Assembly: GCA_963729625.1 (NCBI GenBank)
Contig: CAVSOU010000007.1
Coordinates: 617,705-681,704, forward strand
Source of the DNA: an uncultured bacterium
GTDB taxonomy: Bacteria; Chloroflexota; UBA5177; JANWHV01
Reading direction: 5' to 3'
DNA: 64,000 nt
Shown here piece after piece: positions 8,342 to 56,448 of this stretch (its first letter is position 1; each line of letters opens with the position of its first letter). Below the pieces are notes generated by a model. It was not told where the DNA came from and did no database searches. It worked only from the letters and a program-made list of their open reading frames with translations. Position numbers and translations under genes: made by a program.

Positions 8342-8545
8342 AACCCCGCCACCGGCAAGAGCGTGCAGCCCACCAGACTCCTTCGCCTGAGACTGCCCCA
8401 AGTGTAGAATGAGCATTGACGCGGCTAATCCGCCTTGTGGCGATCCCGCGGGACCGCGCTGGGCAGCGAGGGCGTTCGAGAGGCCGCCAACATTCAGGGG
8501 TGGGCGACCCGACCATCGACGTGCATATGTGAAGGGGCGTGTGAG

Positions 8546-9481
8546 ATGACCGCGATGACCAAACGCGAGCGTGTGATGGCCGCGCTCAGAGGCGGCGAGT
8601 TCGACCGGCCGCCGATCGCCTTCTGGCACCACTTCCGTCCGCGCGGCTCCGCGCGTGCCCTGGCCGAGGCAACGCTCGACTTCTTCGGTGGCTTCGACCT
8701 GGATATCTTCAAGGTGATGCCCGACCTCCCCTACCCGTTCCCCCGTGACAGCATCCACTCGGCGGACCAATGGCATTTGCTGGCGCCCCTGGCGTTGGAC
8801 GCGGGCAACTTCGGACGACAGATCGAGACCGTGCGCCGTGTGCGCGCCGCGGCCGGTCCAGACGTGCCGGTAATCAGCACGCTATTCTCTCCGCTGACAG
8901 AGGCGGTGGCGTTCGCCGGAATCGAGAACGTGCGCGCGCACATCCAGGAGGAACCTGCCACCTTGCATGGCGCTCTCGCGGTGATCGCGGACAACCTGGC
9001 GCGTCTTGGCCGCGCCCTGCTGGATGCCGGAGCCGACGGCATCTTCCTCTCGGTCCAGGGGATGGGGAACGGCCTCTTCACGCCGAGTCAATTCGCCGAG
9101 TTCGGCCGGCCCTACGACCTGATGCTGCTGAGCGCCTGGCGTGAGGGATGGCTCAACGTGCTTCATGCGCACGCCGAGTACGACCTGTTGATCGACGAGC
9201 TCTTGCAGTATCCAGTGGCCGTGTGGAGCTGGAGCGACCGCTACACCGGCGTCTCGCTGCGGCATGTTCGTGGGCTGCTGCCACGAATGACGCTCATGGG
9301 CGGCTTGCACGAGCGCGGCGCGATTGCTACGGGGCCGGTAGAGGCGATCGCGGCGGAGATGCGCGACGCGCTGGTACAGGCCGATCACGCGCGGCTGATC
9401 CTGGCTCCCGGCTGCTCCGTGCCCGACGATTGCCCGGACGAGTGGCTGCGGGCCGCGCGCGCCGCGGTGGATCCCGACTGA
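8546..9481 (+). CDS. Uroporphyrinogen decarboxylase (URO-D/MtaA-CmuA) family protein
   Basis: MTKRERVMAAL..DRPP, FSPLT, AGADGIF, LILAPGCSV. Confidence 0.88.
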   Translation: MTAMTKRERVMAALRGGEFDRPPIAFWHHFRPRGSARALAEATLDFFGGFDLDIFKVMPDLPYPFPRDSIHSADQWHLLAPLALDAGNFGRQIETVRRVRAAAGPDVPVISTLFSPLTEAVAFAGIENVRAHIQEEPATLHGALAVIADNLARLGRALLDAGADGIFLSVQGMGNGLFTPSQFAEFGRPYDLMLLSAWREGWLNVLHAHAEYDLLIDELLQYPVAVWSWSDRYTGVSLRHVRGLLPRMTLMGGLHERGAIATGPVEAIAAEMRDALVQADHARLILAPGCSVPDDCPDEWLRAARAAVDPD

Positions 9482-27142: not shown

Positions 27143-27946
27143 ATGAGTGAGCCGGACGGTCCCGCGGAGCATGTCCTGCGCAATCGCGCCGCGTGGGATG
27201 TCATGGCGCGCGACTACGCGGCGCCGGGGCGCCGCAACTGGCAGGCAGATCCGCACTGGGGTATCTGGGGCATTCCCGAAGCGGACGCGCGGATCTTGCC
27301 CGAGGTCGCTGGGCTCGACGTGATCGAGCTGGGCTGCGGCACCGCCTACATCTCCGCTTGGCTGTCCAGGCGCGGAGCGCGCGTGACGGGCATCGATAAC
27401 TCGCCCGAACAGCTCAAGACCGCTCGCGCCCTGCAAGCCGAATTCGGGCATTCTTTCCCGCTCATCTTCGGCGACGCCGAGCATGTCCCGCTGCCCGATG
27501 CCGGCTTCGATCTGGCCATCAGCGAGTATGGCGCCAGCATCTGGTGCGACCCGTTTCGCTGGATCCCGGAAGCGGCGCGCCTGCTGCGGCCGGGTGGCCG
27601 GCTGATCTTTCTGGTCAATGGCACGATCCTCATGCTCTGTTCGCCGGATGAGGATGGCGTTCCGGCGGAGGAGCGACTGCTGCGCGACTATTTCGGCATG
27701 CATCGCTTCGAGTGGCCGGACGACGAATCGGTGGAGTTTCATCTCGGTCACGGCGATTGGATCCGGCTCCTGCGCGCAAACGACTTCGAGGTGGAGAATC
27801 TCGTCGAGCTGCAGGCGCCCGAAGGCGCCACCACCCGCTATCCCTATGTCACGCCCGAGTGGGCACGACGCTGGCCGTCCGAGGAAGTCTGGATCGCGCG
27901 CAAGCGCTTGAGGGACGATCCGGAGCGGCCGGCCACGCCAGAGTGA
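27143..27946 (+). CDS. Class I SAM-dependent methyltransferase
   Basis: VIELGCGTA, GIDNS, FDLAISEYG, LRPGGRL. Confidence 0.92.
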   Translation: MSEPDGPAEHVLRNRAAWDVMARDYAAPGRRNWQADPHWGIWGIPEADARILPEVAGLDVIELGCGTAYISAWLSRRGARVTGIDNSPEQLKTARALQAEFGHSFPLIFGDAEHVPLPDAGFDLAISEYGASIWCDPFRWIPEAARLLRPGGRLIFLVNGTILMLCSPDEDGVPAEERLLRDYFGMHRFEWPDDESVEFHLGHGDWIRLLRANDFEVENLVELQAPEGATTRYPYVTPEWARRWPSEEVWIARKRLRDDPERPATPE

Positions 27947-28112
27947 GGCGGCCGCTGCCTGGGATCGCGGCACGCATTCATTGCTCACGATGGATTCGGA
28001 TTCGGTTCTCGTTACGTGGGGATGCCTGAGCGCCGAGCAGTTCGGCGTCGGCGTGGGCGAGCCGGGGCGTGAGATATAATCGGAAACGATGTTTTGAGAG
28101 GAGACTGGTTAC

Positions 28113-28688
28113 GTGGGCAAGATGATGAGGCTCTGGCTTGCGGCAGTCATGGCGATCGCGATCGCGGGATCCGCGATGCTCCCGACGGTGGCGGCGTACG
28201 GCACACAGGCGGGCAACCCCAGCGCAGTGACGGTGATCAGGCGTTATGGCGCCGCTCTCCGCGTGGCGCCGTCCAGCGATGCGCGCGTGAAGACCATGTT
28301 GGGGTGCGGCGCTTACCTGCAGGTGATTGGAGGCAATGCCGGCTGGTACCTGGTGCGCTATGTCGACGCCGTCACTCCTTTGGAGACAGGCTGGGTAGGC
28401 AAGGCACGTGTAGGAGACAAGAACACGCCGTTGACGGTGATTTGCGCCAACGCCGTCAAATTCAATATCGGGCAGCACGTCTACACCAAGGTGGCAAGCG
28501 GCTGCCTGAGTCTGCGCGTGATAGCTTCTCGATCGGCGCTCTACCACTACTGCGTGGCGAACTACCATGACTACGTGATCGTGAATGGACCTGTCGGTGT
28601 GGGTGCCGATGACTGGTTCCAGGTAACCAGCCGATCCACCGGTACGGGGTGGGCTCTGGCGCAGTATCTCAGGCCATATAGCTCGTAG
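28113..28688 (+). CDS. Exported protein with two bacterial SH3-like domains
   Basis: Signal peptide; LRVAPS..GWYLVRY..GWV and LSLR..DWFQV..GWALAQYL. Confidence 0.75.
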   Translation: MGKMMRLWLAAVMAIAIAGSAMLPTVAAYGTQAGNPSAVTVIRRYGAALRVAPSSDARVKTMLGCGAYLQVIGGNAGWYLVRYVDAVTPLETGWVGKARVGDKNTPLTVICANAVKFNIGQHVYTKVASGCLSLRVIASRSALYHYCVANYHDYVIVNGPVGVGADDWFQVTSRSTGTGWALAQYLRPYSS

Positions 28689-28690
28689 GC

Positions 28691-28898
28691 CAGGTGGTCG
28701 GCACCTACCTTCACGGGCTCGTCGAGAACGCTGCCGCCCGTCGGGCTCTCATCGGCTGGCTTGGCGCTCGCCGCAGGCCTGCGCCTGCGGACCGGCCAGG
28801 TGCCGGCCCGGGAGCAGGAATACGATCGCCTGGCGTCGGCCGTGCGCGCGGAGCTGGACATGGCGCAGGTCTATGGCCTGCTGGAAAGAGGCGCCTGA
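28691..28898 (+). pseudogene. cobQ: Cobyric acid synthase C-terminal remnant
   Basis: VVGTYLHGL.ENAAARRAL then, frameshifted, REQEYDRLASAVRAELDMAQVY*; no N-terminal part. Confidence 0.75.
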
Positions 28899-28994
28899 GG
28901 TCGAGCGTGTGTTGTGGTCACGATGCATGCCGCAGTGACTTGCGGGAAACAACTACAGTCTGTTCAGTTCCGGTGAGGTGAAGGAAACGACAAC

Positions 28995-29675
28995 ATGCCA
29001 CAGGATAGCTTGAGCGCGCGCGACCTGCAGGTTCGGCTCGCCGTCTACCACTATATGCTCGACCATGAGCACGCGCCTGCGTGCGCCGATCTGGCCGCGG
29101 TGCTGGCAATGCCCGTAGAGGAGGCGCGGCTCTGCCTGCATCGCCTGCACGCGAATCACCTGCTCGTTCTCGAGCCCGGCACGGACACCATCCGCATGGC
29201 CCATCCCTTCTCGGCCATCCCCACCGCCTATCCGGTGCAGACCGAAGGCAAACGGCTATGGGCCAATTGTGCCTGGGACTCGCTCGGCATCCCTGCCATG
29301 CTCAGGTGTGACTCACGCACAGATACTGCGTTCACGTTCTCAGGTGAATCGACCACCTATGCCATCGAAGCCGGAAAGCTCCATGCGCCGGATGGGGGCG
29401 TCGTGCACTTTCCTCTCCCATTTGGCCGCTGGTACGACGATCTGATCCACACGTGCGCCACCATGCTCCTGTTCCGCTCTGACGCGGTCGTAGACGACTG
29501 GTGCGCTGCCACCGGCGAGCCTCGCGGCGAGACGGTGCCGTTGGCGCAGGTCTGGGCTCTCTCGCAGGCATGGTATGCCAATCGCATGGACCCGACGTAT
29601 CGGGGCCGGACAGCAGAGCAAGCCGTCGCCGTCTTCGAACAGGTAGGCTTGCGCTCCGCCTTCTGGCGCACGTAG
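28995..29675 (+). CDS. Organomercurial lyase MerB-like protein
   Basis: N-terminal HTH, MAHPFSAIPT, ANCAWD, C-terminal HTC. Confidence 0.82.
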   Translation: MPQDSLSARDLQVRLAVYHYMLDHEHAPACADLAAVLAMPVEEARLCLHRLHANHLLVLEPGTDTIRMAHPFSAIPTAYPVQTEGKRLWANCAWDSLGIPAMLRCDSRTDTAFTFSGESTTYAIEAGKLHAPDGGVVHFPLPFGRWYDDLIHTCATMLLFRSDAVVDDWCAATGEPRGETVPLAQVWALSQAWYANRMDPTYRGRTAEQAVAVFEQVGLRSAFWRT

Positions 29676-29774
29676 CAGGCAGTCGACACCGATACAGCTA
29701 TACTGGGCCCCAGTAGCAGCAAACGAACATGCCGCCAGGACCGCGCACAGGCAGCTGTAGTTGGTGCCGGAGGG

Positions 29775-29900
29775 TCAGTTGTCGTTGCCAGAGCTACAGC
29801 CGCGACCCAGGCCGATGGTCAGTCTGCCCCTCGCGGGAAACACGCACACGGGGCCATCCTTGGACAGCACAGTGCCCAGCTCTTGTTCATAGAGTTCTAT
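29775..29900 (-). pseudogene. Possible decayed cas1 5' remnant
   Basis: AAGGAG then ATA (possibly a mutated ATG) and ELYEQELGTVLSKDG, resembling the Cas1 N-terminal LYVxEQGxxLxKxG pattern; adjacent to CRISPR repeats. Confidence 0.4.
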
Positions 29901-30009
29901 CGCCAAGCTCCTTTCGGCTCGCACGCGAGGCACCCGGCGGGCTGTGCCCGGGGGACCTAATGTTGGGATCATCGCTAATGGTGCGGTATATCTCCAATTG
30001 CTTCCTGTA

Positions 30010-30171
30010 ATCGAAAGGCAGCCCTCGTCGATAGAGGATTGAAACCCTGGTTGTACCACGCCGAGAACGCCTGAGCCACAACGCGTCTAAAGGCAGCCCT
30101 CGTCGATAGAAGGATTGAAACCTCTTCCAGTGCTGCCTTGACGCGCGCATGGCCATCCACCGTCGAAAGGC
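30010..30171 (+). CRISPR. Orphan CRISPR mini-array: 2 full repeats, 1 truncated repeat, 2 spacers
   Basis: ATCGAAAGGCAGCCCTCGTCGATAGAGGATTGAAAC (30010-30045), GTCTAAAGGCAGCCCTCGTCGATAGAAGGATTGAAAC (30085-30121), GTCGAAAGGC (30162-30171); spacers 39 and 40 bp; ATTGAAAC 3' end. Confidence 0.85.
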
Positions 30172-30173
30172 GG

Positions 30174-30497
30174 TCAAGGCAAATCGAGCTGTACCCGGAT
30201 TGCCCGTTCTACTGCGAGCATGTCGCGCGGGTTCAGCGTGTCGATGCGGTTGGTCAGTCGTTCCTTGGCTACCGTGCGAATCTGATCGGCTAGCGCTTTG
30301 CTGGCTGTACCACCGACCTGCACCAGGGCTTCCCAACGATGTACGGTTGCCGTATTGCTCGTTAGGGGAACGACCTGCACTCGGTCCTGCGCTCGTGTTG
30401 CGGCGTTATTGCTCACGATCACGGCGGGACGACGCTTCTCGATTTCGCCGCCTCGTGCAGGGTCGAAGTCAACCCAGTAGACGTCGCCGCGGCGCAT
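30174..30497 (-). CDS. mazF: Type II toxin, PemK/MazF family
   Basis: MRRGDVYWVDFDPARGGEIEKRRPAVIVSN...VVPLTSN...DQIRTV. Confidence 0.95.
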   Translation of the reverse strand: MRRGDVYWVDFDPARGGEIEKRRPAVIVSNNAATRAQDRVQVVPLTSNTATVHRWEALVQVGGTASKALADQIRTVAKERLTNRIDTLNPRDMLAVERAIRVQLDLP

Positions 30498-30721
30498 CAG
30501 TCGAGTGCCTCATCGACCGACGCTTCGATCCAGGACAGGGCCTCGTGCTCGGCCTGCGTGTCTTCGGCCGCGGCGCGATATTCGGCTTCGAGCGCATCCG
30601 TGCTTAAGACATGAGGTCGCACCAATCCCTCGATGAAGCGACTGATCTCGCCACGCCCGATCTGCTGGTGCAGGCCTCGATAGACCTCGTCGGCAAGAGT
30701 GATGGTGAGTTTGCGTTGCAT
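30497..30721 (-). CDS. Cognate antitoxin (RHH-like)
   Basis: 74 aa MQRKLTITL..., acidic C-terminus, stop overlaps the toxin start. Confidence 0.88.
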   Translation of the reverse strand: MQRKLTITLADEVYRGLHQQIGRGEISRFIEGLVRPHVLSTDALEAEYRAAAEDTQAEHEALSWIEASVDEALD

Positions 30722-30755
30722 GATGATTCTCCGGTGTCAGCCATAGACGCCTTAC

Positions 30756-30773
30756 ACGTATATACGTATTATA
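30756..30773 (-). promoter_or_regulatory. TA promoter -10 box and operator palindrome
   Basis: TATAAT (30773-30768) followed directly by the perfect palindrome ACGTATATACGT. Confidence 0.7.
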
Positions 30774-30809
30774 TCAGGCAGACGACCAGGTGCGGCACGA
30801 TAACCTGAT

Positions 30810-30965
30810 TGTGAAGATGGCCGCTGTACGTGCGACACCAGGCGCGAATCATGCCTTCCGTGGGCCGAACCCAGAAATCGCGGGCCAGGCGATCGGGCAC
30901 GCGCCGGAAGGTCAGCCCATCCACGAACACGGCCTGGATCGCTTTGGCGACAATCCGGTTGGTAT
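30810..30965 (-). mobile_element. Transposase fragment (IS remnant)
   Basis: Unannotated frame TNRIVAKAIQAVFVDGLTFRRVPDRLARDFWVRPTEGMIRAWCRTY, an HTH segment recalled from Chloroflexota transposases. Confidence 0.55.
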
Positions 30966-31185
30966 CGGGGCATATTGCTCGGCGTCGACGTCCATTACCT
31001 GCACGAGCGCTTCGATGACCTCATTACCCTGCCACGCCTGCCCCTGCAGTGGAACACCACGTGGGTGGGAGAACCCGAGGTGTTCTTCCGCTGGATCGAC
31101 GATATGCCACGAAGAACAGTCGACGTGGAACGGCGACTCAAAGCGCAGCCGGAGCTGCGCGCCCTTGTGTCCAACTCCGCGGACG

Positions 31186-31824
31186 GGACCACTCCACGTG
31201 GAGCATCTCGTGCACCGATTCGTAGCCCGCAGCCACCAGAAAGCACACCGCACTCCCCAACAACAGCCGTTCCTCCAACGGGGACACCGGCGCCTGGGTC
31301 GGCGGAGCAGCAATATCTTGGGACGGCCGAGTGCCGCGCGTGAAGGCAACTAGATTGAACGCGGCGAATGCCATGCAGATCAGCAAGTAGCTTGTATACA
31401 GCCAAAAGAGCGGCCCGGTTGGGTCGTGCAGAAAGCCGATGTGATCGCGTACCAAATTGGTGCCGCTGCCGAGGACGGTGATGACCGCCGCGGCGACGTA
31501 ATTGGCCCAGAGCACCGGGCGCCGCCAGGGCACGGCTGCCGCGCGCGGATTGAGGCACAGTGTCAGATGGAGCCAGAGCGTGATGGGCAGCACATCGCAG
31601 ATCCAGCCAAACCGATCGAACGCCAGCCACACGCCGACAGGTCCATCGTGCAGCGCTTCCTCCATACAGCCATAGAGAAAGAAGAGGGCGGCGGAAAGCA
31701 CTGCAGCGCCGGTAAGCACTGATACCGCGGCGCGCTGTCCGCGCGCGAGGACATAGAAGCCCAACCAGAGGACTCCGGCGAGGCCAATCACGTGGAGCAC
31801 GAAGAGAGGCGTCTCGCTCGCCAT
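31186..31824 (-). pseudogene. 3'-truncated paralog of the 17773..19278 membrane regulator
   Basis: ETPLFVLHVIGLAGVLWLGFYVLARG...LPITLWLHL aligns with DSALFIVHVAGYGVFLWHGLYVLTRG...LPAVLWLHL; similarity ends at HEMLHVEW. Confidence 0.78.
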
Positions 31825-32155
31825 CGTCACGATGCCCCCATGGCATCCCTGCAGTAGCAGGCGCATCAATCACCAGCATCATAGCACTGCGTGACGGCGG
31901 CGTCATCCGTGGAATCCGTACTCCAGGGTTGTGAAAACAACTGTTACCTGGCCACAATGGCCAGGGAGAATCTGTAGTGGCAGACAGCCCCGTCGACTGC
32001 GTGCCCCTGGGCGGTTACAATCGGGGTGGCAAGGCCGGCGGCCGGCAACAATCTCTGCGTAACATGTTCGGCGCTTCAATGGGGCTGGACAGCGAGTGAC
32101 CGGTGACGGCCAGCGAACGACGGTCTGTGCCGCATCCCGGGAGGGGCGCGACGCT

Positions 32156-33130
32156 ATGCGCGGGACGCTTGACGAACGGATCGTGACACTGGGCGGGGGC
32201 ACGGGTTCATTCACGATGCTCTCCGAGCTCAAGAAAGTGGCCAGGCACCTGTGGGCCATCGTGACCATGATGGACTCGGGGGGCTCGTCCCGCCGGCTGA
32301 TCGACGAATTTGGCCGGCCGCTCCCTCTTGGCGACCTCCGTCAGGCGCTGGTGGCCCTTTCCCGATCCCGCAAACTCTGGGGTGACATCTTCAGCTACCG
32401 CTTTCCAGATGTGCCATCCGGCCTGGTCGGCGGCCATTCCTTGGGTAATCTGATCCTGCATGCCCTGCAAGATCAGAATGACGGAGACCTCCTCGGGGCA
32501 CTGGAGGACGCCGAAGAGATGCTCAATGCCGCCGGCCACGTCCTCCCGGTGACACTCGAAAACGCGACGCTGTGTGCTGAGCTCAGCGATGGCACCATCG
32601 TTCGTGGCGAGACAGCTATCGACCACCCGGAAGGGCGCACCCTGTTGCCGATCCGGCGTGTGTTTCTCGACCCCATCGTGCCGGTCACGGCCCGTGCCCG
32701 CAAGGCTCTCGAGCGAGCGGACAAGGTGCTTATCGGTCCCGGCGACCTGTTCACGAGCGTTGTGCCGTGCTTGTTGGCCGCGGGCGTTGCCGATGTGATC
32801 CGCTCGTGCGACGGTGAAGTAGTCTACATCTGCAACGTGATGACCAAACGGGGCGAAACCGATGGCTTCGCGGCAGCAGACTTTGTGCGGGTGATCCATC
32901 GCTATCTGGGCCGGCGAGTCGACACAGTGGTGGTGAACACGGGCGAATTCCCCGCTGATCTCGTGGCTCACTACGCCCGGGAAGGCGCTCATCCGGTCCC
33001 TGCCGATCTGGAGACGCTGCGCGCGCTGGTGCCCCACGTGGTGGCTGGGCCGTTCGCGATCACGGAGCAGCTGATTCGCCACGACGCCGAACGCGTGATC
33101 CTGGCTCTGTGGCCAGCACTAGCAGGTTGA
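32156..33130 (+). CDS. YvcK/GlmR (CofD-related) family protein
   Basis: IVTLGGGTG, DSGGSS, GDLRQAL, GHSLGNL, GPGDLFTSV, NVMTKRGET, RHD. Confidence 0.92.
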   Translation: MRGTLDERIVTLGGGTGSFTMLSELKKVARHLWAIVTMMDSGGSSRRLIDEFGRPLPLGDLRQALVALSRSRKLWGDIFSYRFPDVPSGLVGGHSLGNLILHALQDQNDGDLLGALEDAEEMLNAAGHVLPVTLENATLCAELSDGTIVRGETAIDHPEGRTLLPIRRVFLDPIVPVTARARKALERADKVLIGPGDLFTSVVPCLLAAGVADVIRSCDGEVVYICNVMTKRGETDGFAAADFVRVIHRYLGRRVDTVVVNTGEFPADLVAHYAREGAHPVPADLETLRALVPHVVAGPFAITEQLIRHDAERVILALWPALAG

Positions 33131-33148: not shown

Positions 33149-34286
33149 ATGATGACACACCGACAACGAACCCAGGCTGTCTTGAACTATCAACCCTACG
33201 ATCGGTTGCCTCTCGTGCACTTCGGATTCTGGAGGGAGACACTCGAGAAGTGGCGGGCAGAGGGCCACGTCACCGCCGAGGAGGCAGCCGGCTGGGAGGA
33301 CGGCAACCGATTCGACCGGAGCATCTCGGCCAAGCTCGGCTTCGACTTCAATTGGCTGAACTCCATCTATCCATGGGGCGACCGCTTCGGAATTGCACTG
33401 GAGCCTCCCTTCGAGAAGCGCGTTGTGGAGGAGCGCGCAGACGGCACCCAGCTCCTGCAAAACGTCGACGGCGTCATTGTGCTCCAGAAGGCCGGCGCAA
33501 CCTCTATCCCCGCCGAGGTTGATCACCTGCTGAAAGATCGAACCAGCTGGGAAACCCACTACTTGCCGAGGCTCCAGTACTCTTCGGCAAGGGTCGACGT
33601 GAAGGAACTGGCAGAGGTGCAGGCAGCCGCGAGCGAAGAGGATCTCCCGATCGGCATCTACTGCGGCAGCCTGATCGGGCGCGTGCGCGAGTGGTGTGGC
33701 TTGGTCGGCCTGAGCTATATTACCGCGGACGATGAAGGTCTTCTCGACGAGATGATCGATACCTATGCCAGTCTCTGCTATAGAGTAACGGAGCAGGTTC
33801 TGGCCACGGGCGCCCACTTCGACTTTGGGCACTTTTGGGAAGATATCTGTTACAAGAGCGGCCCACTGGTGAATCCAGGTATGTTCGATCGCAAGGTTGG
33901 TCCCCACTACGCCCGCATTGTAAAGCTGCTGAACGACCATGGCATCAACATCGTGTCGCTCGACTGTGACGGAAAAATCGACAGGCTGATTCCCACCTGG
34001 CTGCACGCCGGAGTGAACACGATGTGCCCTATCGAGGTCGGTACATGGGGTGGCAGCATAGGGCCGTGGCGCGCGCTATACGGACTCGGAAATTCGTGGG
34101 GTCGGCGGCGTGAATAAGCGGGTCTTCTCGCAGGATCGTGCCGCGATCGACGCGGAGGTCAGGCGATTGAAGCCGCTGATTGAACTTGGCGGCTACATAC
34201 CCTGTCCCGACCATAGACTGGCCCCAGATGCCAAATGGGAAAACGTGCAGTACTACTGCGATCGCATGCGCATGGTGTTTGGCTAA
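33149..34286 (+). CDS. URO-D family protein, frameshift near 34085
   Basis: FWEDICYKSGPL, DCDGKI; C-terminus GGVNKR...GGYIPCPDHRL...MVFG* continues in another frame. Confidence 0.85.
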
Positions 34287-34404
34287 TCACGCAACCGCAG
34301 CCGCCACCTGGAGCCATGCCGCGCCGGCGACCGGGTCAACCATCGGCACGCGCATGCATTCCCAGCAGTCGGATCCTGCCTGGCAGCGCCAGCGGCGGAC
34401 CGCG

Positions 34405-35100
34405 TCAGGCTGGAGCACTGAAGGTCCCCGGGCTGGAGGCGGTGGCGCGAAACTCCGGCTTGCGATCTGGACGCGCCTCCGCGAGCGCGCGCCGCACGCC
34501 CGCAGCGTCCAGGTCGGCTGCATAGACCGGCGTGCCCGGCTGTTGCCTCCACGACTCGTCCAGCCGGCCCGCGTCGACCGCATCGAACCCGAGGTCGTCG
34601 ACGAGGCGCAGCACGAGCGCCTTGGCAGCCGGGTCGTCGCCCGCAACGGGCAGAGCGATGCGCCCAGGCGACCCCGCGGGCAGGCCGCGCTCGAGCAGGT
34701 GGCGCGCGTAGATGTTGTTGAAGGCTTTGATCACGGGCCGGCCGAGCTGCTGTGCGACCCACGCACTTTCCGTCATTCCCGCCTCGATGGCCTCGATGCG
34801 GCCATCTCGCTGCCGAGGATAGTAGTTGCCCGTATCCACGACAACCACGCCCTCTGCTGCCTCGGCGAACAGTCCGGGCGGCAGCTGGAGGATCTTCTTC
34901 TCAGGGATCGTCACGATGACGAGTTGGGCGCCCCGCGCCACCTCCGTGACCGGCGCTGCTTTCGCGCCGGTTTCCGCGGCAAGATCGGCGAGCGTATCAG
35001 GCTCGCGGGAGTTCGCCAAGGACACCTCGTGCCCGAGTCCGGTAAGCCGCCGCGTGAGGGTGCCGCCGATGTTTCCTGCGCCGATGATGCCGATCTTCAT
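34405..35100 (-). CDS. NADP oxidoreductase, F420-dependent family
   Basis: MKIGIIGAGNIG, VDTGNYYP, IKAFNNI, VAGDD, QQPGTP. Confidence 0.92.
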   Translation of the reverse strand: MKIGIIGAGNIGGTLTRRLTGLGHEVSLANSREPDTLADLAAETGAKAAPVTEVARGAQLVIVTIPEKKILQLPPGLFAEAAEGVVVVDTGNYYPRQRDGRIEAIEAGMTESAWVAQQLGRPVIKAFNNIYARHLLERGLPAGSPGRIALPVAGDDPAAKALVLRLVDDLGFDAVDAGRLDESWRQQPGTPVYAADLDAAGVRRALAEARPDRKPEFRATASSPGTFSAPA

Positions 35101-35352
35101 GCCTTCTCCTCGTGTCTCTGGTGTCACAGGGCTACCGGTACCGATGACTCTTCCGACGTGAACCGCCCCTTGCCATCAGGTCGCCTGTGTCTTCAGCATA
35201 CCTCTCCACGCGGCAAGTGCTGGACCACGGGCGGGCGTTCCGCTACACGATCTTGCCCTCGTGCCACGATGGCGCGGGCTTCATGAGCCGCGCCGGTGCT
35301 AGAATGGCGATGTGTTTGCCGCGTTATGCCTGCACACCGGGAGGTGCCAACC

Positions 35353-37860
35353 ATGCAAGCTGCCGACTATTCGCCGCTCGACCTGTCGTCCCTTTGCAAC
35401 GCCGGCGCGGACTGCGTGCCGGGGGAGGAGCGATTGGCGACAGGCCTCCAGCAGTTCCACGGCATACCGTTTCAGATCGGGTCCCCCACGGGCGACGGGC
35501 CTGCCTGCCTGGTCCGGCTGGCCGGCCAGGATCACCCTGTGTCGATCGACCTGGGTGATGTCACGGCGTATCATATCCTTTTTGCGCATCGGCAGTTAGC
35601 ATCGCGCCTCCTCGAGGGCGGGCCGCTGGGTGAGGTCGTGGCGCAGTACGTGGTTCAGTATGCCGGCGGCGACAGCCTGCGGCTGCCCATCCGCGAGCGT
35701 TTCGAGATCGCCACGGTGCCGACGCGGTGGGGCCAGATGCCGTTCCTGGCGATAGCCGACCAGACCGATAGCTTGCTCCCACGCCACCAGGGTCCTTGGG
35801 GCGAGGCTGGATTCCGGCTTGCCGAGGTCGTGCAGGGGCGGCCTCGCTCCTACTATCTCTGGGCCTGGACCAATCCGCATCCCGACCGCCCGATCCGGCG
35901 CATCGTGGTCGAGCCGGCTGGTCCGGACTTCGTGCTGGCAGCAGTGACCCTTGGTCATCTGGAGGAGGAGCCATTCTGTCGCACCGGCGCGACCACGGTT
36001 GCAATCAGGCTGCCGCAGGCCGGCGACGCCGCGCAGCCCTTCGCGCTCGGCGTACAGGTCGACCGCGGGATCGCGGGCCCGCCGTACCCGCTGCCGGTCG
36101 AGTCCGCGACGGGCTTTCTCGAAGCGACGATGCCCGGCTACGGCGCCGCCGCGAACGAGAGCAGCAGTCCCGCATATGTACAGGTGGCTGCCACGCCTTC
36201 GGCCACACTGCGCGTCACCCTGGGCGACGAAGAACTGGGCGCGGTACGCTGGGGCAATTTGCAGCGCGACGGCAGCAGCGCGCCGTCTCCTCGCCTGCGG
36301 GTGGAGATCGCGGATAGCGGTCGCAACTGGGTGCGCACCGAGGTGCTCGACGATGCGACTGGCGCGCCGATCCCCTGTCGCATCCACTTCCGCTCAGCGG
36401 GCGGAGTGCCCTTCGCGCCGCACGGTCACCACGCGCACCTCAACGGCGGCATGGACACCTGGCACATAGACGTGGGAGGCGACGTGCGGCTCGGCCAGGT
36501 CACGTATGCCTATATCGACGGTCGCTGCGAGGGTTGGCTGCCACGTGGCGAGGTGTTGGTTGATGTGGCCCGCGGTTTTGAGTATGAACCGCTGCGTACG
36601 ACAGTGCGCATCGAGCCCGGCCAGCAGCACCTGACTTTGCGCCTGCGCCGATGGTGCGATATGAACGCGCGCGGCTATTACAGCGGCGACACGCACGTGC
36701 ACTTCCTTTCGACTATCGGCGCCCAGACCGAAGCACGCGGCGAGGACCTCAACGTGGTCAACCTGCTGCAATCGCAATGGGGCCATCTGTTCACCAATAC
36801 GGAAGAGTTCATCGGACAGCCGCATCGCTCCTCCGATGGGCGGACCATTGTCTACGCCTCGCAAGAGAATCGTCAGCACATGTTGGGACACGTCTCGCTG
36901 CTGGGACTGAAGCAGCCTGTCATGCCCTGGTGCTCGGACGGGCCGGAGGAGGCCGAGTTGGGCGGTACCCTTGAGACCACCCTTTCGCACTGGGCCGACC
37001 TGTGCCACGAGCAAGGTGGAACGGTGGTGATTCCGCACTTCCCCGAGCCCAACGGCGAGCCGGCCGCGCTGATCGCCACCGGCCGCGCCGATGCCATGGA
37101 GATGACCAAGTACGGGATGTACGAGCATCTCGAGTACTACCGCTACCTGAACTGCGGCTACCGGCTTCCCCTGGTGGGCGGCACAGACAAGATGGATGCC
37201 GCCGTGCCGGTCGGCCTGTATCGCACCTACGTGCGAATTCCCGATGAAGAGTTCAGCTACGACAGCTGGTGCCGTCACCTGCGCGCCGGGCGCACCTTCC
37301 ACAGCGGCGGCCCGCTGATCGACTTCACAGTCGACGGGCGCCAAATCGGCGACGTCATCACCCTGCCGGGGAACGGCGGCACGGTGGAAGTCGAGGCCAG
37401 CGCCGACTCGATCCTGCCGATTTACCGCCTGGAGATCGTGCAGCAAGGCCGGGTGGTGGCGACCACCGAGGAGGCAGGTGGCGCGCGGCGGCTGCGGCTA
37501 CGGGCGCGCCTCACCATTGGCAGTCACACGTGGCTAGCGGCGCGCGTTGGTGGGATCGCCCACGCCGACGCGATGCACCACCACGATGTTTGGCAACGTG
37601 GGGTCATGGCCCATACATCGCCTATCTATGTCGCGGTCGGTGGGGAGTGGTGGCTCTACGACGCCCGGGAGGCAACCTACATGTTGACCCTGCTCGAGGG
37701 AAGCCTGGCCTATATCCGCACGCGCAGCCGCCAGGATGCATCGCACCGCGTGACACACGCGCACAATGAAGCGGACCATCAGGCATTCCTCGAGCGACCC
37801 GTGCAGGAGGCAGTGGCCGCGATTCATGCCCGCATGCACAGGCAAGGGATACCGCATTAG
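35353..37860 (+). CDS. CehA/McbA family PHP-type metallohydrolase
   Basis: YSGDTHVH, QENRQHMLGH, PH, GGTD, RTYV, AHTSPIYV. Confidence 0.85.
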   Translation: MQAADYSPLDLSSLCNAGADCVPGEERLATGLQQFHGIPFQIGSPTGDGPACLVRLAGQDHPVSIDLGDVTAYHILFAHRQLASRLLEGGPLGEVVAQYVVQYAGGDSLRLPIRERFEIATVPTRWGQMPFLAIADQTDSLLPRHQGPWGEAGFRLAEVVQGRPRSYYLWAWTNPHPDRPIRRIVVEPAGPDFVLAAVTLGHLEEEPFCRTGATTVAIRLPQAGDAAQPFALGVQVDRGIAGPPYPLPVESATGFLEATMPGYGAAANESSSPAYVQVAATPSATLRVTLGDEELGAVRWGNLQRDGSSAPSPRLRVEIADSGRNWVRTEVLDDATGAPIPCRIHFRSAGGVPFAPHGHHAHLNGGMDTWHIDVGGDVRLGQVTYAYIDGRCEGWLPRGEVLVDVARGFEYEPLRTTVRIEPGQQHLTLRLRRWCDMNARGYYSGDTHVHFLSTIGAQTEARGEDLNVVNLLQSQWGHLFTNTEEFIGQPHRSSDGRTIVYASQENRQHMLGHVSLLGLKQPVMPWCSDGPEEAELGGTLETTLSHWADLCHEQGGTVVIPHFPEPNGEPAALIATGRADAMEMTKYGMYEHLEYYRYLNCGYRLPLVGGTDKMDAAVPVGLYRTYVRIPDEEFSYDSWCRHLRAGRTFHSGGPLIDFTVDGRQIGDVITLPGNGGTVEVEASADSILPIYRLEIVQQGRVVATTEEAGGARRLRLRARLTIGSHTWLAARVGGIAHADAMHHHDVWQRGVMAHTSPIYVAVGGEWWLYDAREATYMLTLLEGSLAYIRTRSRQDASHRVTHAHNEADHQAFLERPVQEAVAAIHARMHRQGIPH

Positions 37861-40008: not shown

Positions 40009-40096
40009 TGGACATCCTCCCAACACCTGTTTGGTACGCATCATCTTTCGCCGGCGGCAGGGCATCGCCCCGCAACCGCGCCGGCTCTCTCATCTA

Positions 40097-41267
40097 TTAT
40101 GTAAACATGCCTACACTCGAGGTGGAGTGCATCCTGCCGTAGAGAAAGCGCAAGAACTCGTTTCTCCTGGCCCGACGGCACGCTGTCCCACGCCGACTCG
40201 ACCGATGGCTCACCCGCCCAGTATGACCAGATGAGCGCGCTGCGTTGCGGCGCGGCAATGAACTGCATGCGGTTCTGCACCCAGCCTTCGCCGCCTACCA
40301 GGGTGTTGGCTCGCAGCCAGTCGACCACCTGCCCTGGCGCCCATCCCAGGGCGTGCAATCGCCACGCGGCGCCGGTCCCAATACCGGCGCGATAGCGGCC
40401 CATATAGGCGTTGAGCCGATCGTCGTCGTCCTTAATCCATTGGATCAAGCGAAGCCCGTGATCCGCGATCCCTTCGAATACGGAGGAGCTGGCCGAGTTG
40501 ACGATCGAGAGCAGCCCATCGGCGCCGGCCGTTCCCTCCCTATACCAGTGCTCGCGCAACTTGAACTGCACGTAGTGGCCGGGATAGCACTCGTGGACGA
40601 CCAGGTGTTTCAACGCCGGCCCGGTGAGCACCGGGTCAATATTCAGCTCGACGGTGCGGGCCATGTAGTCGCAGCGCGCATTGAAGTGCGTGCCGCGCAC
40701 GGCAAGCACGCGCATGCCGTCCGACCTGGGCGCCGGGATCGGCAGCACGGCCTCGGTTCGATCCCAGGCTTCGTCGAGCAGCGCCCCCACCGTCGCTTGC
40801 ACCTCGTCAGGCGGCACGCGATGACGCTGCTCCCACGAGGCGCACTGTGTTGCCAGGTCGCCGGAGTAGCCGAGGCCGCTCAAGAGATCGCGCATAGCCG
40901 TGCGAAGACGATCCAGATCCGCCTCGCCGGCGGGCTGGGCGGGCAGGTGCAGGAAGCGGCCGACCTGCTCTTCGAACGGCAGGCCGCGCTCACGCCAGTC
41001 CAGCAACGCGATTGTCGAGTCGCAGACCTGCCGGTAGTAGACGCGGCGATCCTGCTCCGGCAATGCCTGAGCACGCTCTCGCAGCTCCACGAACTGCGCC
41101 CGTGCCTCGGCGTAATCTGCCATCGGCAGCGCGTGGTGCACGTGCGACATGTTTACCGCCACGAGACCATCGTCGTCTTCGCCCCCAGAGATCCGGCAGA
41201 TGGCGTCCACGCTGAGCAAGGCCGGGGTCAACGACTCGGCGTAGGCGAGCGTGGCATCACTGAGCAC
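40097..41267 (-). CDS. DUF885-like metallopeptidase-fold protein (C-terminal frameshift near 40160)
   Basis: HECYPGH, EGIA, SYWAG; tail EFLRFLYGRMHS..MFT* in another frame. Confidence 0.75.
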
Positions 41268-42927
41268 GAGGATCCTCCCCCCGCATCGCGGCTGCTATAA
41301 GCGCGACGGGTACGGATCCGAACGAGAGCAGCCGATCGTGAAAGTCGCGCAGGTTGAAGCTGCTGCCCTCACGTGCTGCCAGGTCGTGCCGCAGATCACG
41401 GATCAGGTCCGTTCCAACCAGGTACATGACTGCCGCGCCGGGGAACATGCTGTTCTTCACCGCCTCTGCTTCGGCAGCCTCGGGCGACATGCCAACTGCG
41501 TCGCGGTAGAAGGCGGCAGCGTCCGCCAGGGAGAGCTCGCCACGATGCAGCCGAACGTCCACAATCGCGCGCGCCGCCATGCGCAGCCGGCTGTGCTGCT
41601 CGGCATAGAGCTCGAGCGGCGTCAGGCAGCCGATCTCGCCAACCAGCTCGGTCGCGTAGCAGGCCCATCCCTCTGCCATCGTGCCGCCGCAAAACATGGC
41701 GATCCTCGACGCGCAATCCACCGCCGCCACGCGACCGATACGCGAGGCAGCACGGTTCGCGTGATAGTTCTGCTGATGGTGTCCGGGACCGCCATGATGC
41801 ACGACGTGGTTCAAAGTAATGACGCTGTCGTTGGTCGCTCGCAGCCGGCGTCGCTGTTCCGCCTCCGGCAAGTCGGCCTCGATTGGCGGGACCAGGTACT
41901 CTACCGGCGTGACGGCGTCAAATGGCGCCGGCGCGCGGTAGGGCAGGAAATAGAGCGACGGCGCCGCGTCGCGCGCCCAGGCAGGCTGCGGCACATACCG
42001 AATTGGGTAGTCCTGCCAGGTGAGCACGTCGCCGGCACTGACGGCAGCACGAATCCTCTCCCAGGTCTCCTCGAATCGAGCGTAGTAGCGGTCGGCCGCG
42101 GGGTGCAGATCGGCCAGCGATGCCAGCGCTTCAGCCGGGCCGGCGGCGCCGAAATCGACGGCATGCGCCGCGAGATGAGCTGAGCACTGCTGGAGCTGGT
42201 CGACGGCGTACGCCTCGATGGCGCCGGCGCCCTGGTCCAGGCAGTGGCCGCGCCGCAGCAGCAGGTCGAACGCCTCATCACCGCAGGCGCAGGCCTCCGA
42301 TCCTCGCGACAGCAGCTCGCGCTCCAGGTATTCGCGATGGCGGGAAAATGCCACGGCCGCCACATCCGCGGCGGCGCGCAAGCGGCTGCCATCCAACCCG
42401 GACGCGCCGATCAGCGCGTCTACGCCACCGTTCAGGAACGCGATCGCTCCCGTGCATTCACGCATCGCGCGCGCGGTCCAGGCACGTGGCGCACTGCGCA
42501 CGTTGGCCTCTGCCTGCCGGAGCAATGTGGGTACGGCGTGCAGGCGCCCGATCGCGGACTCGACGCGCTCGGCAAAGGGAGCGAACGGCCGCAAGAACAG
42601 GGACAGCACGCCGAAGACGGCCTCGCCCGTGTACAGACTGGGATTGCCATGCTCGAAGTGACTTGAGGCCGCCTCCCAGAGCGCGATCTCCAGAAATCCT
42701 TCGGCCAGGCGGCGGTCGATGGCCTCAGCTTGCGTGAGCGGTTCGTCCGGCAGGGAACGGAGATGGCGCAGCTGGGCACGCATCTCCTCCACCGCACCGG
42801 CCATCGCCTCCTCCGAGAAGTCCGGCAGCAGGTGGTCGTGGGCATGGACGCCGATGAACGTGGCGTTTACCGGACGGCGGCGGTAGTAGGCGGCGAAGAA
42901 GCCGTCCAGCCATCGCGAGAACTCCAT
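41257..42927 (-). CDS. DUF885 family protein
   Basis: PVNATFIGVHAHD, HHGGPGHHQQ, AEGWACY, RAIVDVRLH, FHDRLLSFGSVP. Confidence 0.88.
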   Translation of the reverse strand: MEFSRWLDGFFAAYYRRRPVNATFIGVHAHDHLLPDFSEEAMAGAVEEMRAQLRHLRSLPDEPLTQAEAIDRRLAEGFLEIALWEAASSHFEHGNPSLYTGEAVFGVLSLFLRPFAPFAERVESAIGRLHAVPTLLRQAEANVRSAPRAWTARAMRECTGAIAFLNGGVDALIGASGLDGSRLRAAADVAAVAFSRHREYLERELLSRGSEACACGDEAFDLLLRRGHCLDQGAGAIEAYAVDQLQQCSAHLAAHAVDFGAAGPAEALASLADLHPAADRYYARFEETWERIRAAVSAGDVLTWQDYPIRYVPQPAWARDAAPSLYFLPYRAPAPFDAVTPVEYLVPPIEADLPEAEQRRRLRATNDSVITLNHVVHHGGPGHHQQNYHANRAASRIGRVAAVDCASRIAMFCGGTMAEGWACYATELVGEIGCLTPLELYAEQHSRLRMAARAIVDVRLHRGELSLADAAAFYRDAVGMSPEAAEAEAVKNSMFPGAAVMYLVGTDLIRDLRHDLAAREGSSFNLRDFHDRLLSFGSVPVALIAAAMRGEDPRAQ

Positions 42928-42944
42928 TGCACGCGATTCCATGC

Positions 42945-44066
42945 CTAGCGCTCCAGCGGAAGGTCGACCCAGCGGCGCTCGTGGAACGAGCGCTCCACGG
43001 CATTGATCGCCTCCTGCACCCATGCTCCGTCCCGAAAATTGCCCTGGTTCACCGTTCCGCCAGCCCGAATCTCGTCGATGAAGTCCTTGATCAGGTTGGC
43101 GTAAAACAGCGATCGCCATGATTCGGTGGGAGCGCCCCCGGCGGGGAAGAACTGTTGCGGAACGTCCAACTGACGGAACTCCACCGCATCGGGCGTCGCC
43201 ACGCGAATCGTCTCGGCGATTCCACTCTCCTCGACCAGGCGACAGATGATCGCGCCACGATCGCCGTACATGCGAGCCTCGATGCCCGGGTAGTTGCCCA
43301 CCGTGACAAAGCTTGTCTGGATGGAGCCGATTGCTCCATTGGCATATTCGCACAGGTAGATATCGCCGTCGTCGATATTCATACGCATCATCCGGCCCGT
43401 GGCACGCACTACTCGCTCCGGAATGAAATTGCGCATGGTGCCGACGACGCGCGTGTAGTCCGCCCCCACCCACCAATGACCGATGTCGATGATCGGTGCC
43501 CCGTAGCCTTCCAACGAGGACGTCTGCAGCACCGACTGGTCTGCTTCGTGATCGACCTGGCGGAGCGGGGTCTGTGGATCGAGCCATTGCGAGTTCTGTT
43601 CGAAGCCGTTGAAGATGAACGGCTTGCCCACGAAGCCCTGGTCGATGAGCGACTTGGCGTACAGCACGCCTGGGCTATAGCGAAACGTGAAGCCGAGCTT
43701 GGTCTTCAAGCGCTTGCGGTCCGCGAGATCCGCGGCGCCCAGCGTCTGGCGATAGTCGAAGGCGACAGGCTTTTCGCAGAGCACGTGCTTGCCGGCTTCG
43801 AGCGCGGCCATGGCCAGTTCGTAGTGCGTATGCGACGGCGTGCACACGTCTACCACGTCGACGTCTGCCCGAGCGATCGTTGCCTGCCAGTCATCGGACA
43901 CGGAATCGATGGCCAACTCCGCGGCGAGAGCACGAGCACTGTCGGCGACGACGTCGCACAGGGCGACGATCCGGCATCGCGGATCCCGTTGCCAGCCTGG
44001 AATGTGGGCGAACCGCGCCCAGGCGCCCGCGCCAAGCACGGCCACGCGCAAGATGCTGTCGGTCAT
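42945..44066 (-). CDS. Gfo/Idh/MocA family oxidoreductase
   Basis: VAVLGAG, VDVCTP, GKHVLCEKP, GFTFRY. Confidence 0.93.
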   Translation of the reverse strand: MTDSILRVAVLGAGAWARFAHIPGWQRDPRCRIVALCDVVADSARALAAELAIDSVSDDWQATIARADVDVVDVCTPSHTHYELAMAALEAGKHVLCEKPVAFDYRQTLGAADLADRKRLKTKLGFTFRYSPGVLYAKSLIDQGFVGKPFIFNGFEQNSQWLDPQTPLRQVDHEADQSVLQTSSLEGYGAPIIDIGHWWVGADYTRVVGTMRNFIPERVVRATGRMMRMNIDDGDIYLCEYANGAIGSIQTSFVTVGNYPGIEARMYGDRGAIICRLVEESGIAETIRVATPDAVEFRQLDVPQQFFPAGGAPTESWRSLFYANLIKDFIDEIRAGGTVNQGNFRDGAWVQEAINAVERSFHERRWVDLPLER

Positions 44067-55253: not shown

Positions 55254-55491
55254 GACTTCTCCCGTCAGCTTTCTGTTCCGATCCGGGGCGCGCGGCGCAG
55301 CGCATCATGATTCAGCGCCAGTGTCGGGTGCCGATACGAAACCAACATTCGGCACGTCACATTCAGATTCGCGCCACCCGGTGAGGACCACTGTGATCAG
55401 GGCAAGTGCTATGATCACACGCTATGATACATACGGTGACACGGAGCGTGTCGCCTGGCGGGTTGCGACGCGAGTGACGGCAGGATCTTCG

Positions 55492-56448
55492 ATGAGCAGG
55501 CTTGAACAGGTGCAAAAGGCGATGCGACTGGCAGGTCCCGACTATGTGCCGATACTCTTCTACAATGCCGACAGAGAGCAGTCGGACATCATCGTGATCG
55601 AGGTTGAGCGCCACTTCATGGGCGAGGGCAAGGATCAATCGGAGTGGGGCTTCACCTGGGATCGTCGCGATGAGACCATGGGCAAGGTGCAGCAGCCTCT
55701 CGTCATGAGCTGGGATCGGCTCGGGGATCTCGTGGTACCGTCGGCGAGCGACACGACAAGGTTTCAGCAGGTGGCGGCCACGATGAGCCACTTCGGAGAT
55801 CGCTACTATGTCGCCAGTCTCGCGTTGACCGGCTTCACGATCATGTCGTTCTTGCGTGGCTTCGAGAACCTGCTGGTTGACCTGTACGAGAATCCCGAGC
55901 AGGTCGGACGCCTGGCCGACATCGTCTTCGGGTTTGAAGAAGCGATCATTCGCCAGGCAAAAGCCTATGGATTCCATGCGGTGGCGTTCTACGACGATTG
56001 GGGCACGCAACGCAACCTGATCATTTCGCCCAAAACATGGCGGGAAGTCTTCAAGCCCCGCTACAGGCAGCAATTTGATCTGGCGCATCGCCATGGTCTC
56101 GACGTCTACTTCCATTCGTGCGGGTACGTCTACGAGCTCGTGCCGGACTTCATAGAGATCGGAGTCGACCTCCTGAACATCAGCCAGCCCAATCTCTACG
56201 ACATAGAGCGGCTGGGCCGGGAGTTCGGGGGCAAAGTCTGCTTCGTCTGCCCGGTCAGCTACCAGACGACCGGGATATCCGGCACCACGCAGGAGATTTA
56301 TCGGGAGGTCGGCAGACTGATCGAGAACCTGGGTCGTTTCAGCGGAGGCCTCGTGGGCTACGTCGAGGAGTACCACAGCATTGGAATGTCCGACGAGAAC
56401 TACCGCGCATGCATTCGGGCCTTTCAGGAACTGGGACGGTACAGGTAG
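55492..56448 (+). CDS. URO-D family protein
   Basis: LRGFENLL, YDDWGTQ, FHSCG, GVDLLN. Confidence 0.88.
   Translation: MSRLEQVQKAMRLAGPDYVPILFYNADREQSDIIVIEVERHFMGEGKDQSEWGFTWDRRDETMGKVQQPLVMSWDRLGDLVVPSASDTTRFQQVAATMSHFGDRYYVASLALTGFTIMSFLRGFENLLVDLYENPEQVGRLADIVFGFEEAIIRQAKAYGFHAVAFYDDWGTQRNLIISPKTWREVFKPRYRQQFDLAHRHGLDVYFHSCGYVYELVPDFIEIGVDLLNISQPNLYDIERLGREFGGKVCFVCPVSYQTTGISGTTQEIYREVGRLIENLGRFSGGLVGYVEEYHSIGMSDENYRACIRAFQELGRYR

Follow-up and report, generated by a model that had tools for sequence, protein, structure and literature searches.

In the genome of an uncultured bacterium of the Chloroflexota, two CRISPR-like repeats and the beginning of a third adjoin the 3' end of a mazEF module, and the question is whether array and toxin-antitoxin (TA) pair form one combined system or have come to lie side by side by rearrangement. 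The window analyzed here, i.e., the whole stretch of 64,000 nucleotides, lies in contig 7 of an assembly of 21 contigs and 5.41 Mb, which is 87% complete with 5% contamination. The features that matter for the question are listed in Table 1.

Table 1. Features of the array, its leader side and the mazEF module (window positions).
Feature	Position	Strand	Description
Intergenic stretch, merB-like gene to R1	29676-30009	+	last 60 nt (29950-30009) AT-richer, putative leader remnant
CRISPR repeat R1	30010-30045	+	36 nt, ATCGAAAGGCAGCCCTCGTCGATAGAGGATTGAAAC, read directly
Spacer S1	30046-30084	+	39 nt, read directly
CRISPR repeat R2	30085-30121	+	37 nt, degenerate: G4>T, 1-nt A insertion
Spacer S2	30122-30161	+	40 nt, read directly
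R3 stub	30162-30171	+	GTCGAAAGGC, first 10 nt of third repeat; break point of the array
mazF, toxin of the PemK/MazF family	30174-30497	-	107 aa, intact; PF02452 (PemK_toxin), E 4.1e-27, profile 1-108/109
Antitoxin gene (mazE), probable ribbon-helix-helix (RHH)	30497-30721	-	74 aa; overlaps the mazF start by 1 nt
Putative mazEF promoter/operator region	30722-30790	-	AT-rich palindromic stretch ACGTATATACGT

A sequence-only reading had described two degenerate repeats of 36-37 bp and a third one cut after 10 bp, placed 2 bp from the mazF stop codon and convergent with the TA operon, and direct reading confirms this description in every detail. After the stub come the two bases GG and then the stop codon of mazF (TCA on the + strand, 30174-30176), and beyond the stub the sequence has no resemblance to the repeat. 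We take a CRISPR array to consist of direct repeats of about 23-50 nt, separated at regular spacing by unique spacers of similar length. The locus has this spacing, with repeats of 36/37 nt, spacers of 39/40 nt that are unique in the genome, and start-to-start distances of 75 nt (R1 to R2) and 77 nt (R2 to stub); a repeat search of the window finds the R1/R2 pair at the spacing of 75 (family D1). R1 and R2 align over 33 nt with 97% identity and one gap (blastn-short). R2 begins with GTCT instead of GTCG and has its extra A within GATAGAAGG, and the first base of R1 is A where R2 and the R3 stub have G; at positions 1 and 4, R1 and R2 are unlike each other and unlike the stub. The 32-nt core of R1 has one match in the window at up to 3 mismatches, R2 being absent from these matches solely because of its indel, and none of 100 shuffles contains any match. 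When the flanks were searched for more degenerate copies none was found, as the best local score of 20 lies between the median (18) and the 95% point (22) of the null. An Rfam scan of positions 28000-33000 at E values up to 1 gives 0 matches.

R1 is predicted to fold into a 4-bp CCUC/GAGG hairpin, as is the repeat of a relative described below, and it retains the 3' end ATTGAAAC, presumably the 5' handle of a crRNA. In the predicted fold of R2, the 1-nt insertion abolishes this hairpin. An intact hairpin together with the 8-nt ATTGAAAC 3' tag is not found in all units, the stem being lost in R2 and R3 being cut after 10 nt.

The repeats of the window are true CRISPR DNA. When 40 related genomes were searched at the DNA level, the 3' 25-27 nt of the window repeat were matched three times in G003, a metagenome-assembled genome (MAG) of the same genus, in which a 3.9-kb contig ends in a regular array of at least 5 copies of GTCGCGACAGGCCCTCGTCGATAGAGGATTGAAAC, 72-74 nt apart. 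Identity between the two repeats is confined to these 3' 25-27 nt, and the 5' third differs. A separate exact-pattern scan of metagenome contigs gives two records, L011 and L012, of which L012 represents the same trailer end as in G003. L011 contains one repeat, about 300 nt of non-coding leader and then cas1 and cas2, with cas6 convergent with cas1/cas2 (Pfam E values of 3e-80 for cas1, 3e-19 for cas2 and 1.8e-13 for cas6 with PF10040). The Cas1 encoded there is nearest to I-G, I-D and I-C models and reaches the cut-off of no subtype, Cas6 has no match in NCBIfam, and a search for relatives of this Cas1 in genome contigs confirmed 0 of 400 pattern matches. Because the L011 repeat stands beside cas1, cas2, and cas6, the repeat family belongs to a Cas6-processed class-1 system. 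The window repeat is of the GTCGAAAGGCAGCCC... type, and its three copies have AAAGGCAGCCC in common where G003 has CGACAGGCCC, which indicates that they descend from a sister repeat variant and do not reflect random decay of the G003 form.

On the side of the putative leader, positions 29950-30009 have a G+C content of 0.48 versus about 0.63 genome-wide, in keeping with a leader. Since the leader of L011 lies on the GTCG... side of the repeat, transcription of the window array would follow the + strand and head for mazF. A search of the putative leader upstream of R1 gave no sigma-70-like site on the + strand, and window positions 29660-30180 align convincingly neither with the L011 leader nor with the L012 trailer. 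The leader that does not align to L011 and the differing 5' third of the repeat imply that the direct ancestor array and its cas genes are not among the sequences seen.

Is there a system in the same cell that could make use of such repeats? The sequence-only reading had noted the lack of intact cas genes in 64 kb and had proposed to look for the same repeat and for cas genes elsewhere in the genome. A Pfam scan of 59 window ORFs brings up no Cas protein, and the negative result extends to the whole genome, in which neither was found. A six-frame profile search of the entire assembly for Cas1, Cas2, Cas5d, Cas6, DevR/Cas7, and RAMPs gives 0 matches with PF01867, PF09827, PF01881, PF10040, PF03787, PF09704, and PF01905 (Cas6 being covered by PF01881 and PF10040), each of which found its targets in control genomes. 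The Cas3 core model (TIGR01587) gives sub-threshold helicase matches only, as it does in 14 of 14 control genomes, and tblastn with Cas1, Cas2, and Cas6 of L011 against the genome yields a best E value of 0.33. The repeat does not recur elsewhere in the 5.41 Mb, where the best other blastn-short match is 15 nt long. As to other arrays, a k-mer finder for spaced repeats reports 14 clusters in the assembly, each of which TRF shows to be a plain head-to-tail tandem repeat with no unique spacers. Cognate cas genes, which a functional locus should have in the same genome, are thus lacking from this 87%-complete assembly. At this completeness, and with 5% contamination, cas genes may have escaped assembly or may lie on a plasmid that was not binned. 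Of five genomes of the genus, none has a match to Cas1 or Cas6, although G003 has an array, which means that cas loci can be missing from these bins; this is the main caveat of the analysis. CRISPR-cas loci often fail to bin, and G003 is an example.

The spacers give no hint of a target. Neither S1 nor S2 has a second copy in its own genome, where no match goes beyond 17-18 nt, or an exact match in viral contigs, and 0 of 20 other genomes of the class have a match at up to 3 mismatches. When compared with cas1, cas2, and the partial cas6 of L011 and with the G003 contig, neither spacer matches beyond 10 nt. Taken by their CreA-type seeds (nt 1-5 and 7-11 of the spacer), S1 and S2 match nothing in the mazEF region; in the wider search, the seed patterns recover their own sites only, plus one match of S1 at position 59880. 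The sole likeness between a spacer and mazF is a 9-nt inverted match of S2 with the mazF stop region. This was rejected as a signal, as a match of that length is at chance level, being reached in 658 of 2000 shuffles.

The neighboring module looks like a complete TA operon. MazF is 75 and 72% identical to two Chloroflexota orthologues over residues 1-107 and has the same C-terminal end, reading ...QLDLP* where the closest orthologues have ...QLGLP*. This native C-terminus shows that the toxin gene is complete and that the junction lies just outside mazF. NCBIfam models of MazF match below their equivalog cut-offs, and the match of the antitoxin to RHH_6 is sub-threshold (24.6 bits vs a cut-off of 27, E 4e-5). 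What characterizes a type II TA module of the MazF/PemK kind, i.e., a full toxin domain and a small antitoxin gene directly upstream in one operon, is present. Within positions 29500-31200 there is one sigma-70-like match; it falls inside the putative promoter/operator region, but on the + strand. No terminator-like site occurs between array and mazF, and the one minus-strand match, at 30197-30185, is located inside mazF. Transcripts of mazEF probably run into the relic, but we see no sign that this matters; the mazF 3' region with the antisense array has an unremarkable predicted fold (z -1.3). To the right of mazE, ORF fragments (30769-30930 on the - strand and 30975-31343 on the + strand) and a similar ORF in G001, the nearest relative, belong to no Pfam or NCBIfam family, and tblastx finds no significant paralogue of the fragments in their own genome beyond a weak match (C8).

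If array and mazEF worked together, relatives of mazEF might be expected to keep the mini-array, as the sequence-only reading had proposed to check. They do not. A scan of MazF relatives, with one genome per species, confirmed 28 loci that were inspected over up to 3 kb on each side, and neither the window repeat (0/28) nor an array of the ATTGAAAC type (0/28) is found at any of them. Any spaced repeat at all is seen at one of the 28 (L031), where a mazF relative of 42% identity has a two-copy repeat of 33 nt at a distance of 2.7 kb; as a CRISPR it is unconvincing. An antitoxin homologue lies directly upstream of mazF in seven of the eight closest loci. The nearest copy of mazE belongs to G001, which is of the same genus and contains mazE and the first ~40 nt of mazF as a DNA copy of 84% identity in another context (matching window 30442-30734), and there are no repeats at this copy either. 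The nucleotide likeness to it fades within the putative promoter/operator region of the window. The distribution of mazEF is patchy, and its genomic contexts are varied.

The relic is chromosomal and lies among metabolic genes; neighbors in the window encode transporters, dehydrogenases, a kinase, methyltransferases, a MerB-like lyase, and CofD. Synteny with G001, at 81% nucleotide identity, runs through transporter and methyltransferase genes and ends at about 27916-27960. Past this point the DNA of G001 is unrelated to window 27950-33100, so that the non-syntenic stretch measures 5 kb, and the genes of 27950-33100 match scattered places in relatives. The synteny break and the scattered matches place relic and mazEF in a mosaic, rearrangement-prone segment.

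The junction itself is located inside a 681.7-kb contig, about 34 kb from the contig end, and it has neither a repeat nor a shared k-mer by which an assembler might be misled. Independent contigs from public runs cover the region in pieces: X2 corresponds exactly to 29827-30018, X9 to 30030-30180, and X1 to 30546-30805. The 151-nt contig from run X9 differs from the window by 2 substitutions and has no gaps and no clipped part. It carries the extra A of R2, and this insertion is therefore not an artefact of the present assembly. As it is unclipped end to end, what comes after the stub in this contig is GG and 7 nt of mazF, and the repeat does not continue. For a contig to count as bridging we asked for at least 31 nt on both sides of the junction, of which X9 falls short, and none among the four public runs reaches this length. 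As to transcripts of the stretch, none came from the one metatranscriptome among these runs, and no RNA run was found to contain the stretch.

As cas genes could not be detected in the genome, the locus is most likely a leftover without activity rather than a novel joint system. We regard it as very probable that a CRISPR relic without function, left by a deletion or a replacement, adjoins an independent mazEF cassette. The ground for this is observed: the array has the anatomy described and is of CRISPR origin, the assembly lacks cas genes and further arrays, the linkage is unique, and synteny breaks. From these we infer the order and the type of the recombination events as well as the lack of function. 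The stump would be the leader-proximal end of a class-1, Cas6-processed array, of which two repeat-spacer units and 10 nt of the third repeat are left. The remaining array and the cas genes would have been lost by illegitimate recombination, either by deletion or by replacement with a segment carrying mazEF, and this may have created the new junction 2 nt beyond the mazF stop codon. On this reading, mazEF would be an ordinary self-contained type II cassette of an RHH antitoxin and a MazF endoribonuclease that works alone, and the cassette would have come to lie next to the array by chance, when a variable part of the chromosome was rearranged. If the cell has neither Cas6 nor an effector, and as a mutation has already hit the hairpin of R2, the repeats would only decay. 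As a counterpoint, a random deletion would seldom break so neatly, within 2 nt of a stop codon.

The sequence-only reading had left an either/or: insertion of the TA module or a deletion destroyed the array, or the locus is a unit of mini-array and type II TA, with TA readthrough giving antisense pre-crRNA, or its crRNAs are used by a distant Cas system. Its first half stands, as the array stops 10 nt into R3, no remainder of it exists in the assembly, mazF has its native end, and the surroundings are non-syntenic. For its second half we see no positive evidence, and of the three observations that it had named as refuting, two were made: the linkage is unique, and the searches of the 87%-complete assembly brought up neither a cognate Cas6 nor an effector.

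Four other explanations deserve to be weighed against a relic beside an independent cassette. It is very improbable that an orphan mini-array is transcribed from the leader remnant and served in trans by a Cas6 and an effector encoded elsewhere, be it on a plasmid or in the 13% by which the assembly is incomplete. The outcome would be interference with two spacers, or a block on the uptake of the cognate system as in the orphan CRISPR4 arrays of E. coli. Such a supply in trans would agree with the hairpin and the ATTGAAAC 3' end kept in R1, with the AT-richer stretch before R1, with the incompleteness of the assembly, and with the binning of G003 with an array of this family but without cas genes; orphan arrays that act are on record (PMC8616872). 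However, the 5.41 Mb contain no match to a Cas family, no tblastn match to the cognate Cas1, Cas2, or Cas6, and no other array. R2, which would be needed both for the 3' handle of S1 and for the 5' handle of S2, has a broken hairpin, and S2 lacks a complete downstream repeat. Nor do the spacers point to a target, their matches to cas1, cas2, and the partial cas6 of L011 and to the G003 contig being at most 10 nt long, with no exact match in viral contigs and none in the 20 class genomes at up to 3 mismatches, and the leader has no promoter-like site. An error of assembly, by which a fragment of an array and an unrelated mazEF contig would have been joined into a chimera in the MAG, is very improbable. 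The contamination of 5% and the lack of a public-run contig that bridges the junction with at least 31 nt on both sides would allow for it. Against it stand the position of the junction inside its long contig, the unclipped X9 contig, in which the stub is succeeded by GG and 7 nt of mazF, although below the 31-nt rule, and the absence of any repeat or shared k-mer at the junction.

The two remaining explanations would give the relic a role in the expression of mazEF. We consider it extremely improbable that relic and mazEF are coupled in regulation, be it by a CreTA-like repression or by convergent transcription, in which a leader transcript would run antisense through mazF or TA read-through would yield anti-crRNA. 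The geometry permits it, with convergent units, 2 nt from stub to stop codon, and no terminator-like site between them, and CreTA modules do derive from degenerated mini-CRISPRs (PMC8501985, PMC9458426). CreTA, however, needs Cascade genes and lies in or next to a cas operon (PMC8501985), and neither is present here. The CreA-type seeds of both spacers have no match in the mazEF region, the only spacer/mazF likeness of 9 nt is one that 658 of 2000 shuffles reach, and the toxin is a protein with its own protein antitoxin. Moreover, the linkage recurs in 0 of 28 relatives, the fold of the 3' UTR is not unusual (z -1.3), and no promoter-like site precedes R1 on the + strand. Scarcely credible, too, is a related possibility in which the leader remnant would be an active promoter with a transcript running antisense into mazF, so that a dead array would have been co-opted as a cis-antisense layer damping the toxin. 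The repeat hairpins would then serve only as RNA-stabilizing structures, without need of any Cas protein, and the transcript would reach mazF because no terminator separates it from the array.

Taken as an inert relic beside an independent cassette, the locus has slight importance beyond annotation. It offers a snapshot of CRISPR loss in an uncultured lineage of the Chloroflexota, in which one genome of the genus has a regular array and another a two-repeat stump. It is also a caution for automated scans, as a TA pair next to CRISPR repeats does not by that alone amount to a CreTA-like or "safeguard" arrangement. If a functional reading were true, this would be the first protein type II TA module coupled to a Cas-less mini-array in the literature, which was covered narrowly; the evidence speaks against it.

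How does the locus compare with known systems? As a TA module it is like type II mazEF/pemIK cassettes: the toxin domain is full, a small antitoxin gene lies upstream and shares 1 nt with the toxin gene, the operator region is AT-rich and palindromic, and the distribution is patchy. Nothing was found that sets the window mazEF apart from them. MazE of E. coli is an AbrB-fold antitoxin. The antitoxin of the window, by contrast, is probably of the RHH type, with a Pfam match below the cut-off.

Virus- and plasmid-borne mini-arrays and solitary repeat units are similar in that one or two spacers are flanked by complete and truncated repeats. PMC8616872 describes hosts of these elements as carrying the cognate system, and their spacers as often targeting competitors. 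In contrast, the window relic is chromosomal, lacks a cognate system, and has no spacer for which a target was found. The review PMC12737573 mentions neither MazF nor orphan arrays nor mini-arrays.

The resemblance to CreTA, i.e., CRISPR-regulated pairs of toxin and antitoxin RNAs (PMC8501985, PMC9458426, and PMC10097628), consists in one or two degenerate CRISPR repeats that adjoin a TA module. According to PMC8501985, CreT is a small RNA toxin, CreA is a crRNA-like antitoxin that needs Cascade and pairing of its seed to the creT promoter, and such modules are located inside the cas operon or next to it. In the window, both toxin and antitoxin are proteins (a MazF of 107 aa and a probable RHH protein), cas genes are lacking, and no seed match was found. 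CreTA thus differs from the window locus in every defining feature tested.

The closest parallels are orphan and degenerate arrays, which PMC8616872 presents as a known outcome of CRISPR-Cas loss. In the same review, E. coli lineages that lost the I-F cas genes are said to keep a small array, and the CRISPR4 arrays of E. coli are described as expressed, as carrying anti-cas spacers, and as blocking the uptake of a cognate system. Unlike CRISPR4, the window spacers match none of the cas1, cas2, and partial cas6 genes of L011 with which they were compared, and unlike E. coli orphan arrays, the window relic is smaller (two repeats and a stub) and visibly cut inside a repeat. With orphan arrays it shares its shortness, a genome free of cas genes, degenerate repeats, and relatives that keep a regular array of the repeat family.

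The same-genus genome G001 holds a partial copy of the window's mazEF module, at 84% nucleotide identity, which spans the antitoxin gene and roughly the initial 40 nt of mazF. Beyond these first ~40 nt, the reading frame of the G001 mazF copy runs on into unrelated sequence, and the toxin gene of G001 therefore looks truncated or fused through another rearrangement. TA loci seem to be recombination break points in this genus.

On the far side of the mazE promoter, the window carries a short ORF fragment for which no matches are found in Pfam or NCBIfam. Over a 68-nt core, it shares 81% identity with a portion of a 186-aa ORF in G001. This fragment may be the remnant of a mobile-element gene. 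For the predicted membrane protein encoded further to the right, a paralogue with 73% identity is present on the same contig (G000:C7:41101-41744) and G001 possesses a copy with 74% identity.

Directly 5' of the leader remnant of the CRISPR relic lies a MerB-like gene, which scores under the NCBIfam cut-offs for the MerB equivalog and, among the genus genomes, has a counterpart (67% identity) only in G004.

Features in the window, in its own genome and in the loci compared with it
Feature	Location	Strand	Remarks
MerB-like gene, alkylmercury lyase family	window 28995-29675	+	Pfam E 4e-25
Short ORF fragment, right of mazE promoter	window 30769-30930	minus	68-nt core 30853-30920
Predicted membrane protein, 243 aa	window 31138-31869	minus	no family match
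Large-ORF run (322, 368, 854 aa), adjoining CofD, with two DUF885 proteins downstream	window 33149-37860 and 40041-43587	+ and minus	no Pfam matches for the large ORFs
Second URO-D-like pair	window 8435-9481 and 55321-56448
Partial mazEF copy (L009)	G001:C10, about 689524-689816		counterpart of window 30442-30734
186-aa ORF, no known family	L013 5033-5593, G001:C12		near RadC/JAB-like ORF
Long in-frame tandem repeats	G000:C11:503799-506625 and C11:935771-937425		78-nt period, ~12 copies, two times; 105-nt period, ~7 copies
Cognate cas locus	L011 350-2589		array, leader, cas1, cas2; cas6 convergent

Elsewhere in the window, two DUF885 proteins are encoded downstream of the large-ORF run beside CofD. 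The tandem repeats in the window's own genome, which were met during the array screen, look like repetitive protein-coding genes.

For the Cas1 encoded in the cognate cas locus on the metagenome contig L011, the best-scoring model is the I-G Cas4/Cas1 fusion, matched in its Cas1 portion; the ORF itself shows no Cas4 domain.
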